NCBI GenBank assembly: GCA_934120395.1
Contig: CAKOTZ010000006.1
Coordinates: 16,914 to 80,913 of the forward strand
Origin: an uncultured Clostridia bacterium
GTDB lineage: Bacteria > Bacillota > Clostridia > TANB77 > CAG-508
Direction: 5' to 3'
Length of the DNA stretch: 64,000 nucleotides
In this document: positions 28,378-31,414 of the stretch, piece by piece
Numbering within the stretch: the stretch's first letter is position 1
How the letters are laid out: each line of letters opens with the position of its first letter
Notes under the pieces: model-generated
Seen by the model: only the letters and a program-made list of their open reading frames with translations
Databases searched by the model: none
What the model was told of the DNA's origin: nothing
Position numbers and translations under genes: made by a program

Positions 28378-28814
28378 TTACCGCCTACACAAAAATATAT
28401 GAAAATTTAGCCGTTCCGTTCTCCAAGGCGCTTGGACAACAGTCCTTTCAAATTTTAATGAACACATTCTAAACTTGTGGAATGAATAACTGCTTCAAGG
28501 TCGAACTCACTATTAAATTTTATATATTTTTGCCTACGGCTAGTGAAAGGTAGTTTAGTGTATTGAAATAGATACTACATTAGCGAGAAGAACAAAAAAA
28601 TACCATACAAAGGTAAGTTTTTTTCATTTGTACTTTACAAATTCAAAATTATAATATAAAATGTATTTAAATAATTAACATAGAATTACATAATATTGCT
28701 TAAAGATGGATAAGCTAAAATAGTAATTATGTTAGAAATACAAAGGAAAGAGGTATAAAAATGAACTTGAAAAGTAACAAAGCAATCACATTGATAGCAT
28801 TGATAATCACAATA
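28378..28814 (+). repeat. segmental duplication copy B
   Basis: See copy A. Begins with an orphan remnant of an ATPase 3' end (..LYRLHKNI* versus ..CYRLHNNI*) and carries about 120 nt of extra sequence. Confidence 0.7.
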
Positions 28815-30023
28815 ATTATATTGCTAATATTAGCAGGAGTGAGTTTGTCAATGGTGCTAGGAGAAAATGGTTTAATTAACAAGGCACAGTCAAGTGTAAA
28901 CAAATACAAAGAGAGTAGCGAAAATGAACAAAAGCTATTAAATAGTATAGAAAATTATATGGATTTACAACTAAAATTACCAGGAGAAAAAGTAGATTTA
29001 CCAGATGGATGGAATAAAGATACAGTAGATGCAGTATTAGATGATAAGAAAAACACAATACCAGTACCAAAGAACTTCTATTATGTAGGAGGGAATTTAG
29101 ATAATGGAGTAATTATATCGGACAATTCAGCTGATGCCTATGATGGAAAAGTAGACAAAACAACATGGGAATATACAACAAGCTTAGTAGGCAACCAATT
29201 TGTATGGATACCATGCACAGAATCTGAATATCATAAGACAGAATGGGAAAGTCAAAGTCAATATGTTTATGGTGTATACGATAAATCGGGACCAAGTCAA
29301 GATGAAATAGATAAAGTTAAAAAATATAATGGTTTTTATGTAGGAAGATATGAAGCAGGGTTAGCAGACACAATAAAAGAATATACAGGAAATCAATTAA
29401 GCGATGGTTCAAATAGTCCAGGATATAATGTAGCAGGAATACCAAAGTCAAAGGCAGGAGAATTACCATGGATATTTATTAACCAAACAAATAGTAAAGC
29501 AAATGCAGAAAAAATGTATGAAAAAAATACTTGTGTAACAAGTGGACTAGTAACAGGAACACAATGGGACGTAATGTTAAACAAATTTATTGGAACAACA
29601 AATGCTAATAGAGTAACTTTTACAGAAGCAGACATGAAAAATTCAAGTAAATGGGGAAATTGTTATAATAATGACTTGATATATACAGGAAGGTCAGCAA
29701 CATTATTTAAGAATGGAAGTAGTGAGTATATAAGCCCATGGGGAGAAAAACAAATAAATGCGGAAACAAAAACAAATACATGTACCGAATATACAACTGG
29801 TGCCAGTAAGTCTACAGAAGCATATCATATTTATGATGTAGCAGGGAATGTATGGGAATGGACGGAGGAGGTCGGACAAGGCACTGCATATCGCGTCATT
29901 CGTGGTGGTTCTTGTGGGAATGATCAAGATACTAGTCCAGCGTGTTGGCGTTATTCTACTCTCAAAGATTATGAGGTGTACTATCACATCGGATTTCGTA
30001 CTGTATTGTATATAAAAAATTAG
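28761..30023 (+). CDS. pilin-like N-terminus plus FGE/C-type-lectin-fold protein (DGR-target paralog with diverged VR)
   Basis: 420 aa. N-terminus NKAITLIALIITIIILLILAGVSLSM. C-terminus YDVAGNVWEWTEE...RVIRGGSC...HIGFRTVLY. Confidence 0.8.
   Translation: MNLKSNKAITLIALIITIIILLILAGVSLSMVLGENGLINKAQSSVNKYKESSENEQKLLNSIENYMDLQLKLPGEKVDLPDGWNKDTVDAVLDDKKNTIPVPKNFYYVGGNLDNGVIISDNSADAYDGKVDKTTWEYTTSLVGNQFVWIPCTESEYHKTEWESQSQYVYGVYDKSGPSQDEIDKVKKYNGFYVGRYEAGLADTIKEYTGNQLSDGSNSPGYNVAGIPKSKAGELPWIFINQTNSKANAEKMYEKNTCVTSGLVTGTQWDVMLNKFIGTTNANRVTFTEADMKNSSKWGNCYNNDLIYTGRSATLFKNGSSEYISPWGEKQINAETKTNTCTEYTTGASKSTEAYHIYDVAGNVWEWTEEVGQGTAYRVIRGGSCGNDQDTSPACWRYSTLKDYEVYYHIGFRTVLYIKN
29893..30007 (+). other. 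VR-like segment not matching the local TR by adenine-only changes
   Basis: Aligns ungapped to the TR over 115 nt but differs at many C/G/T positions. Confidence 0.7.
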
Positions 30024-30148
30024 TAAATATTTCCTTCAAACACTAGACAAAATAAAAAAGTTAATATAAAATAAACACAAATATAATGTCATATAGTAGC
30101 ATAATATAGAATAATTAGGAAAATTCAAAAGAGAAGAGGAGAAAAAAC

Positions 30149-31414
30149 ATGAACAACAAATCAGCAAAGGGTATAACCCTTGTTGCCCTAATTATTACTA
30201 TAATCATTCTACTTATTTTGGCTGGAGTAAGTTTGTCAATGATATTAGGAGACAATGGGCTAATAAAAAAAGCACAAGCTAGTGTTGATGCATACCAACA
30301 AGCGGCATTAAATGAACAAAATTTACTAGATAGCATAGAAAGCTATATGGGAAATTACGGTTTACCAGAAAACACACCAACCACACCTGCAGGAACACAC
30401 GTAAAACCACCAGCAAAATGGTTAGGAACAATTGTAGATGCAGTGGCAGATGGAAAAGGCAACACATTTCCAGTGCCAAAAAGTTTTTACTACGTGGGTG
30501 GAGATTACACAAACGGAGTAATCATATCAGACGACCCAGCAGATGCATACGATGGAACAACAGATAAAACAACATGGGAATATACAACAAGTTTAGTAGG
30601 AAACCAATTTGTATGGATACCATGTACACCAGCAGAATATATAAAAACAAGTTGGGGCATGGTATATGGAGGCTATGATGCAGAAAGCGGAGCAGGAGCT
30701 GAAATGATGCAAGTAGCCAAATATGGAGGATTCTATGTAGGAAGATATGAAGCCGGCTTAGCAGACACAATAGCAGAATATACAGGAAATCAAATATCTT
30801 CTAGTTCAATTTATAATCTAGCAGGAATACCAAAATCAAAGGCAGGAGAATTACCATGGATATTTATCAGCCAAACAAATAGTAAGAAAAGTGCAGAAAA
30901 CATGTACAATACAGACGAAAAACATTCAGACTATGTAACAAGTGGACTAATAACAGGAACACAATGGGATGTAATGTTAAACAGATTTATTGGAACAACA
31001 AATGCTAATGGAGTAACTTTTACAGAAGCAGACATGAAAAATTCAAGTAAATGGGGTAATTATGCAAGTAGTGCAACAACATATACAGGAAGATCTGCAA
31101 CTCTATTTCAAAGTGGAAGTAATTGGTATATAAGTCCATGGGGAGCAAAGCAAACAGATGCAAAAACAGCAACATATACCGAATATACAACAGGAGCAAG
31201 TAAAAAAACAGAAGCATATCACACTTATGACATAGCAGGAAATGTATGGGAGTGGACGGAAGAAGTCGGACAAGGCACTGCATATCGCGTCCTTCGTGGC
31301 GGTTCTTGCGATAATGCTTCAGGTTCTTACCCAGCCTGCTGCCGCCATGGTAACAACTCTGTTTCCTTTGTGTACTATCTCGTCGGGTTCCGTGCCGTAC
31401 TTTACATCAAGTAG
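30149..31414 (+). CDS. DGR variable protein: pilin-like N-terminus plus FGE/C-type-lectin fold
   Basis: 421 aa. N-terminus AKGITLVALIITIIILLILAGVSLSM. C-terminus YDIAGNVWEWTEE...RVLRGGSCDNASGSYPACCRHGNNSVSFVYYLVGFRAVLY. Confidence 0.88.
   Translation: MNNKSAKGITLVALIITIIILLILAGVSLSMILGDNGLIKKAQASVDAYQQAALNEQNLLDSIESYMGNYGLPENTPTTPAGTHVKPPAKWLGTIVDAVADGKGNTFPVPKSFYYVGGDYTNGVIISDDPADAYDGTTDKTTWEYTTSLVGNQFVWIPCTPAEYIKTSWGMVYGGYDAESGAGAEMMQVAKYGGFYVGRYEAGLADTIAEYTGNQISSSSIYNLAGIPKSKAGELPWIFISQTNSKKSAENMYNTDEKHSDYVTSGLITGTQWDVMLNRFIGTTNANGVTFTEADMKNSSKWGNYASSATTYTGRSATLFQSGSNWYISPWGAKQTDAKTATYTEYTTGASKKTEAYHTYDIAGNVWEWTEEVGQGTAYRVLRGGSCDNASGSYPACCRHGNNSVSFVYYLVGFRAVLYIK
31287..31401 (+). other. 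DGR variable region (VR)
   Basis: 115 nt versus the TR: 12 mismatches, all at TR adenines. Confidence 0.9.

Follow-up and report, generated by a model that had tools for sequence, protein, structure and literature searches.

A predicted modular type IV pilin with a retroelement-diversified lectin domain in an uncultured gut Clostridia bacterium

Two paralogous genes beside a diversity-generating retroelement

The window analyzed here is a 64-kb stretch of DNA (64,000 nucleotides; assembly GCA_934120395.1, contig CAKOTZ010000006.1, positions 16,914 to 80,913 of the forward strand) from an uncultured Clostridia bacterium. It contains a diversity-generating retroelement (DGR) preceded by two paralogous genes, T1 (28761–30023) and T2 (30149–31414), which encode proteins of 420 and 421 residues with 71% identity; the N-terminal part of these proteins and the way in which they might be displayed are the subject of this work. 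Both genes and all components of the DGR lie on the plus strand. T2 is followed by the gene of the accessory protein Avd (31526–31891; PF22296, bAvd, 63.4 bits; NCBIfam DivGenRetAVD, 75 bits) and by the gene of the reverse transcriptase (RT; 31869–32885; RVT_1, 62.7 bits), which also adjoins Avd in four of the loci used for comparison (L001, L006, L050 and L033). A 118-nt template repeat (TR; 32915–33032) containing eight AAY codons is located 3' of the RT gene. The variable region (VR) of T2, VR2 (residues 380–419, 31287–31404), and the VR-like segment of T1, VR1 (residues 378–417, 29893–30010; 65% identical to VR2), occupy the extreme C-terminus of their proteins.

A preliminary description of the window had treated both proteins as DGR targets, which holds for T2 but not for T1. 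Of the 13 positions at which VR2 departs from the TR, 12 are template adenines, whereas VR1 departs from it at 40 positions, only 12 of them TR adenines, with no adenine-specific match. Likewise, 12 of the 13 residue differences between T2 and its 97% identical homolog P0001 fall inside the VR (380–419), in contrast to one of the 15 differences between T1 and its 96% identical homolog P0030. Given this adenine pattern and the placement of the strain differences, T2 alone behaves as a live DGR target, and T1 is a fixed paralog with a static VR-like stretch.

The C-terminal region of T2 (30425–31411) is a module of the C-type lectin (CLec)/formylglycine-generating enzyme (FGE) fold with predicted ligand-binding function. 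The FGE-sulfatase profile (PF03781) matches the C-termini of both T1 and T2 above its cut-off (25.8 bits for T2), and a family profile compared with solved structures matched SUMF2, FGE and TvpA. An AlphaFold model of T2 calculated from 50 homologs has a mean predicted local distance difference test score (pLDDT) of 85.5. In a Foldseek comparison of this model with the PDB, the DGR variable proteins TaqVP (E = 1.6e-4) and Mtd came out on top, followed by FGE and TvpA. The CLec/FGE fold proposed in the preliminary description is thus upheld by the Pfam and family profiles and by structure prediction.

TvpA is a lipoprotein and Mtd a component of phage tail fibres. With these two proteins and TaqVP (PDB 1yu*, 2y3c and 5vf4), the system described here shares the C-terminal CLec/FGE fold, the VR at the extreme C-terminus, the adenine-specific changes from TR to VR, and the presence of Avd and RT alongside; unlike Mtd and TvpA, T1 and T2 carry a predicted type IV pilin module. 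The appearance of the phage protein Mtd among the best fold matches raises the possibility of a receptor-binding protein of the Mtd kind, borne by a prophage or by a neighboring conjugative element. A type IV secretion system (T4SS)-like cluster and a relaxase/coupling-protein pair in the window, as well as phage tail-collar or Gp10_C domains in a few relatives, would fit such an origin. We nevertheless consider it highly improbable: a Pfam scan of the 53 larger open reading frames (ORFs) of the window, comprising all gene-like ones of at least 90 residues, revealed no phage structural genes, and none of 71 loci encoding relatives of T1 and T2 contains the T4SS genes of the window, their paralogs being found among housekeeping genes.

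The N-terminal module and its counterpart in a pilus operon

In both proteins, the first 68 residues (28761–28964 in T1, 30149–30352 in T2) form a module that is followed by a linker and by the CLec/FGE domain; the linker of T2 is rich in Pro and Thr (residues 69–92, 30353–30424; NYGLPENTPTTPAGTHVKPPAKW). The N-termini read MNLKSNKA↓ITLIALIITIIILLILAGVSLSMVLGENGLI in T1 and MNNKSAKG↓ITLVALIITIIILLILAGVSLSMILGDNGLI in T2, where the arrows mark the predicted cleavage after Ala8 and Gly8, respectively, and the leader of T2 is MNNKSAKG. They share the motif leader-K-(A/G)↓ITL(I/V)ALIITIIILLILAGVSLSM(V/I)LG(E/D)NGLI. The AlphaFold model of T2 contains two helices in this part (residues 5–33 and 38–69), the first one hydrophobic and separated from the second by a GDNG break; the pLDDT dips at residues 61–70, and residues 70–95 have no secondary structure.

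More than 4,500 full-length homologs possess this N-terminal motif. A search with residues 1–50 of T2 against 1.84 billion cluster representatives (50%-identity clusters; E ≤ 0.001) returned 18,686 clusters, an upper bound for the family; all of the best 150 matches have the motif, in proteins of 56–797 residues. Over the N-terminal 45 residues, identity is 60–85% across otherwise unrelated proteins, and beyond the first ~60 residues the relatives are unrelated (mean column identity 8%). Their C-termini consist of adhesin-type domains: BspA-type leucine-rich repeats (LRR), LRR_8, GLUG, Big_2, F5/8-type C and H-lectin.

Position statistics were derived from 233 unique N-termini of relatives. 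The leader has a median length of 9 residues and a net charge of +2. Position -2 is K or R in 88%, and position -1 is G in 79% and A in 20%, with no other residue observed; I+1 (97%), T+2 (100%) and L+3 (96%) follow. Residues +1 to +25 are hydrophobic, and G+18, G+26 (94%), N+28, G+29 and A+34 are conserved at 83–97%, with values of 85–95% for G+26, N+28 and G+29. The Ala that replaces Glu5 in T1 and T2, pointed out in the preliminary description, is typical of the family: position +5 is A in 89%, S in 6% and T in 3% of the N-termini, and never E. Judged from these sequences, such conservation is unlike that of a generic signal anchor. Cleavage by prepilin peptidases takes place behind Gly or Ala (PMC10191384), and a basic residue followed by a position limited to these two is the type of site that they recognize.

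All of the 71 family loci retrieved from reference genomes belong to metagenome-assembled genomes (MAGs) of uncultured gut Clostridia, with several paralogs per MAG dispersed among housekeeping genes. Clustering of the ORFs in these loci gave solely housekeeping neighbors; Avd or RT is encoded within 10 kb in merely 4–6 of the 71.

A connection to pilus genes emerged in other metagenomes, from a 148-residue protein with an N-terminus of the T1/T2 type that is encoded directly 5' of the gene of a 252-residue PilD-like protein. On longer contigs, the order of the genes is as follows: a 545-residue protein, a 257-residue protein, a 170-residue membrane protein, one to three pilin-sized genes, the PilD-like gene, a 335-residue protein, two T2SSE genes and one T2SSF gene, the last three of which match PilB (402 bits), PilT (313 bits) and GspF/PilC (186 bits) in NCBIfam. 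Altogether 83 PilD-like loci were collected, 80 of them by a metagenome scan, and those with at least 700 nt upstream of the PilD-like gene (70) were taken as informative. Every informative locus (70 of 70) encodes, directly upstream of the PilD-like gene and within 2 kb of it, a pilin with a K-G↓ITL…A+5 N-terminus. Among 75 unique operon pilins, position -1 is always G, and position +5 is A in 71 and S in 4; a canonical pilin with Glu5 (G-F-T-L-I-E) was found in none of the 83 loci.

We constructed a hidden Markov model (HMM) from the first 62 residues of the operon pilins and ran it on the six-frame translation of the window. Only three sites matched: T2 (76.7 bits, E = 8.5e-23), T1 (70.5 bits, E = 7.6e-21) and a truncated third copy of the N-terminus of the module (27918–27992, plus strand; MNLKSNKAITLVALIITIFLLPMK followed by a stop codon; 23.8 bits, E = 2.8e-6), which was also picked up by a six-frame motif scan. 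Operon pilins of 69–77 residues align end to end with residues 1–68 of T1 and T2, as illustrated by …KAAATNYTNAAAEEKTQLTNLETYMNN of an operon pilin and …KAQASVDAYQQAALNEQNLLDSIESYMGN of T2. Residues 1–68 are therefore those of a complete short pilin, with a basic leader ending in K-G/A and two helices, the first of them hydrophobic and 25 residues long, on either side of a G(D/E)NG break. This comparison assigns the N-terminus of T1 and T2 to the pilins of a type IV pilus system that occurs in uncultured gut Clostridia of low GC content, and it is this end-to-end alignment that leads us to regard the two proteins as modular pilins.

The short pilins are encoded ~100–350 nt upstream of the PilD-like gene in loci L110, L121, L125, L133, L138, L142–L147, L151, L153, L156 and L158; they are helix-only and have no Glu5. 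The truncated copy in the window lies behind a duplicated upstream segment. This segmental duplication (copies at 27740–27990 and 28385–28800) reaches from the 3' end region of the AAA_14/DUF4143 gene across a promoter-like stretch into the beginning of the pilin module, and the upstream copy terminates in the 24-codon remnant. The copies are ~400 nt apart, and a small ORF and a terminator-like hairpin lie in this interval.

The conservation of Gly+26 (94%), often with Val at +24 and with (D/E)NG next, could also be that of a long Sec signal peptide; signal peptidase I would then cleave behind Gly+26 (…VLG↓ENG…) and release a soluble or wall-associated lectin with the mature end (D/E)NG(L/I)I. 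Signal peptides of Gram-positive bacteria are long, which favors this explanation. Judging by its sequence, however, the hydrophobic stretch of 25 residues matches a transmembrane helix in length and not a signal-peptide core, and a cut at this position would leave only ~35 polar residues of the 69–77-residue operon pilins. In addition, the conserved K-G↓I-T-L site and its link to PilD-like, PilB and PilC proteins indicate class III processing, and we regard release by signal peptidase I as very unlikely.

The PilD-like protein has an N-terminal methylase domain (PF06750, 102.5 bits) in which C40, C43, C65 and C68 are invariant (four-Cys methylase domain), and its gene always adjoins genes of Glu5-less pilins. 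Sequence searches of the PDB with this protein yielded zinc-finger noise only. The family, represented in loci L077–L160 (e.g., L078:10001-10777), comprises more than 3,600 proteins of ~255 residues that retain the zinc-finger methylase domain and one invariant Asp (GIDKE). The ~335-residue protein encoded after it (L078:10863-11870, L080:10825-11868) has a weak PilV-like N-terminus; its C-terminal motif FVWVPRF or YVWIPRF resembles NQFVWIPC of the globular domain of T1 and T2, a likeness by motif only.

Display on a pilus or on the membrane

We favor, with moderate confidence, the interpretation that T1 and T2 are modular type IV pilins, each composed of a pilin module, a Pro/Thr linker and a CLec/FGE module, that are displayed on a pilus, T2 being rewritten by the DGR. 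Under this interpretation, the proteins would insert into the membrane, and the prepilin-peptidase homolog of the lineage would cleave them behind Gly8 in T2 and Ala8 in T1; a machine of PilB and PilC would then take them up into a filament that PilT would retract. The tip of the pilus would be the likeliest site, since the grafted module is bulky, by analogy with PilB of Streptococcus sanguinis (PMC8179133). The DGR, through Avd, RT and the TR, would use adenine mutagenesis to rewrite the final 40 residues of T2 and thereby alter the ligand specificity of the displayed lectin surface, leaving the carrier untouched. The cell is thus likely to display, on a pilus that can be retracted, an adhesin that is hypervariable; we infer that T1 and T2 act in adhesion and that a pilus operon of the kind described above is present in this genome. 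The preliminary description had envisaged a hypervariable surface on a pilus-like or membrane-anchored stalk. The pilin module and the CLec domain with its VR agree with that picture, which has to be amended in three points: T1 is not a live target, the T4SS-like cluster is unrelated, and the loss of Glu5 is not confined to the targets.

Comparable architectures are known. The modular pilins PilB and PilC of S. sanguinis carry a von Willebrand factor A (vWA) module and a lectin module, respectively (PMC8179133, PMC9934059), and such grafted adhesive modules are modelled at the tip (PMC8179133). T1 and T2 resemble them in the succession of pilin module, short linker and grafted adhesive module, in belonging to a monoderm system with PilB, PilT and PilC, here those of the operons in other metagenomes, and in the predicted tip location. 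They differ in that the pilin module is helix-only (~68 residues), has no Glu5 and scores under the IPR012902/PF07963 threshold, in that the graft has a CLec/FGE fold rewritten by a DGR, and in that the hosts are uncultured gut Clostridia. In Bacteroides, according to a preprint (bioRxiv 10.1101/2024.11.15.621889), a DGR likewise diversifies the adhesive component of a pilus of a gut commensal; that system, as presented there, involves a type V pilus, another phylum and other carrier proteins. Tip minor pilins of the GspK/PilK type also combine a Glu5-less pilin-type N-terminus with large extra domains in some members (PMC10191384). In those systems, the capping subunit alone is without Glu5, in contrast to the present one, in which every operon pilin found is without it; hence the missing Glu5 of T1 and T2 is no argument for a tip position. 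The operon pilins of 69–77 residues are essentially helix-only, as is Geobacter PilA-N, and the family profile weakly matches 'Geopilin domain 1' (9egp, E = 0.039). Unlike the Geobacter protein, the operon pilins have no Glu5, and there is no sign of conductivity or of a PilA-C partner. Geobacter pilins retain Glu5.

Several observations weigh against display on a pilus. As regards the module itself, the Pfam N_methyl profile (PF07963) aligns with residues 4–28 of both proteins (profile positions 2–26) at 13.0 bits for T1 and 15.9 bits for T2, under its 21.2-bit cut-off, and no NCBIfam pilin model matched either protein. In favor of a pilin origin, on the other hand, 39 of 82 relatives match N_methyl at E ≤ 0.01. 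A further point against pilus display is Glu5, which is missing throughout the T1/T2 family and in every operon pilin found. In type IV pili of bacteria, its conservation is described as absolute (PMC10710030), and it forms a pair with the amine at the N-terminus of the adjacent subunit (PMC10710030, PMC10191384). For prepilin peptidases, the conservation of two Asp residues is described as universal (PMC10710030, PMC10191384). In the PilD-like protein, the second catalytic Asp is absent, and the Peptidase_A24 domain is not detected even at E ≤ 1, so that cleavage by this protein is uncertain. It is now a candidate for the processing enzyme, a question left by the preliminary description, albeit an atypical one and one not seen in the window. 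The names PilMN-like and PilO-like for upstream proteins of the operon are given by analogy, from size, order and topology only, and searches of Pfam, NCBIfam and PDB sequences with the 545-, 257- and 170-residue proteins returned nothing.

Genomic evidence also speaks against this reading. Among the 53 scanned ORFs of the window, none matches Peptidase_A24, T2SSE or T2SSF, in agreement with the earlier statement that no prepilin peptidase or pilus ATPase is encoded there. No pilus operon or prepilin peptidase is found within 10 kb of any of the 71 family loci; likewise, no pilus genes occur in the contexts of P0240 and P0187, two large proteins of the N-terminal family, or of P0153. A search for a contig that combines the pilus operon with a close homolog of T2 was negative. 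An FGE-family gene and the pilus operon co-occur in one genome in L080 and L116 only, a few kb apart (~5 kb in L080), and in L116 the FGE-family protein starts with another anchor that is not of the pilin type, whereas that of L080 is cut at the edge of the locus. In these two loci, the FGE-family gene (L080:1-857, L116:1741-2865) is followed by leuS, spoVA genes, a dodecin gene and then the pilus operon. The T2-family loci and the pilus-operon loci both have a GC content of ~27.5%, and the housekeeping proteins common to the two sets are 58–79% identical, which suggests that the sets represent related genera rather than the same species.

The abundance of the family is a further point against pilus display, as many paralogs per genome and thousands of proteins would compete for few pilus tips. 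This abundance fits membrane-anchored display as well as a pilus tip: the module could be a pilin-derived membrane anchor that is never polymerised, whether cleaved or not, with the second helix and the linker serving as a stalk for the lectin. Up to 18,686 clusters with large LRR, immunoglobulin (Ig) or lectin modules, several paralogs per MAG and the position of family members among housekeeping genes with no pilus genes close by are consistent with such an anchor, as are the absence of the usual docking salt bridge in proteins without Glu5 (PMC10191384) and a PilD-like protein that is one catalytic Asp short. An anchor, however, has no need for 60–85% identity over 45 residues across unrelated proteins, nor for a -1 position restricted to Gly and Ala or an invariant Thr at +2. 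Moreover, operon pilins of 69–77 residues have the same sequence and no cargo; the occurrence of such cargo-free pilins in pilus operons implies that the primary job of the module is filament building. On balance, we regard a permanent anchor as plausible, though less likely than display on a pilus.

Returning to modular pilins displayed on a pilus, CLec-fold DGR variable proteins, modular type IV pilins and DGR-diversified type V adhesins in Bacteroides are already known. In the literature, we came across no account of a type IV modular pilin diversified by a DGR or of this Glu5-less pilus lineage, and surveys of DGRs mention pilin-type targets in passing only. More tentatively, and with less confidence than we place in pilus display of T1 and T2, we propose that uncultured gut Clostridia possess a large, undescribed branch of type IV pili. 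It would be characterized by Glu5-less pilins, a PilD without the second Asp and a ~68-residue carrier for thousands of adhesin modules, the DGR-diversified lectin among them; were this so, these bacteria would bear a retractile pilus with a hypervariable tip. A widespread gut lineage with exceptions to both the Glu5 rule and the two-Asp rule would have consequences for ideas on the docking of pilins into filaments and on their processing. For most DGR targets of cellular genomes, the location is unknown; here a carrier is identified, a type IV pilin bearing a hypervariable lectin, and the biology becomes testable. Thousands of LRR, Ig and lectin proteins that begin with this module escape current pilin models, leaving a whole class of surface adhesins in abundant gut Clostridia unannotated.

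Accessory genes and other features of the window

Two small genes come just after the TR. The first (33194–33472, plus strand) encodes a 92-residue OB-fold protein with homologs beside RT in L001, L050 and L006, and the second (33485–33922, minus strand) a 145-residue protein consisting of MutS domain I only (MutS_I, 45 bits), with homologs in L006, L050, L033 and L071. Both kinds of gene stand beside Avd/RT in L006 and L050, the OB-fold homolog also in L001 and the MutS-I homolog also in L033. MutS domain I is a mismatch-binding domain. Both are possible accessory genes of the DGR, whose products might protect TR/VR heteroduplexes against repair. A MazE/MazF-like toxin-antitoxin pair, assigned by reading the sequence, is found ~200 nt past the MutS-I gene (34122–34687).

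The T4SS-like cluster (11289–25327) includes five VirB2/T4SS_pilin paralogs (at 11289, 11688, 12123, 12756 and 17057), a PrgI-like gene, a VirB4-like ATPase, an 816-residue protein and an 878-residue M23/cell-wall hydrolase. The preliminary description had singled it out as the only filament machinery nearby; we rejected it as a partner of T1 and T2 and consider it unrelated, since homologs of its genes occur in 0 of the 71 family loci. A phage or plasmid origin of the N-terminal module was also rejected, after a tblastn search with the N-terminus gave 0 matches in 50,697 phage and 72,556 plasmid records, a result whose sensitivity the low-complexity filter may have lowered. Just before the T4SS-like insertion lies an lgt ORF (9780–10193) that covers positions 115–239 only of the LGT profile, its N-terminal half being missing or out of frame. 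A second transfer-type group (57005–63953), comprising a two-domain single-stranded DNA-binding protein (SSB), a TraL-like protein, Replic_Relax and a truncated-looking coupling protein (TraG-D_C/TrwB), is located ~32 kb away from the T4SS cluster; rpsF-ssb-rpsR-like genes (48201–49251) lie between the two.

A D-Ala-D-Ala carboxypeptidase of the Peptidase_S11 family is split into two ORFs (34745–35170, profile positions 3–103; 35226–35996, positions 125–239) by a frameshift, pseudogene formation or an assembly error. Near the DGR, a further adhesin locus (36573–40721) encodes a 1,382-residue surface protein that combines a thioester domain (TED) with five DUF11 repeats; it is followed by genes for an Ig-like protein and for a response-regulator/GGDEF protein.

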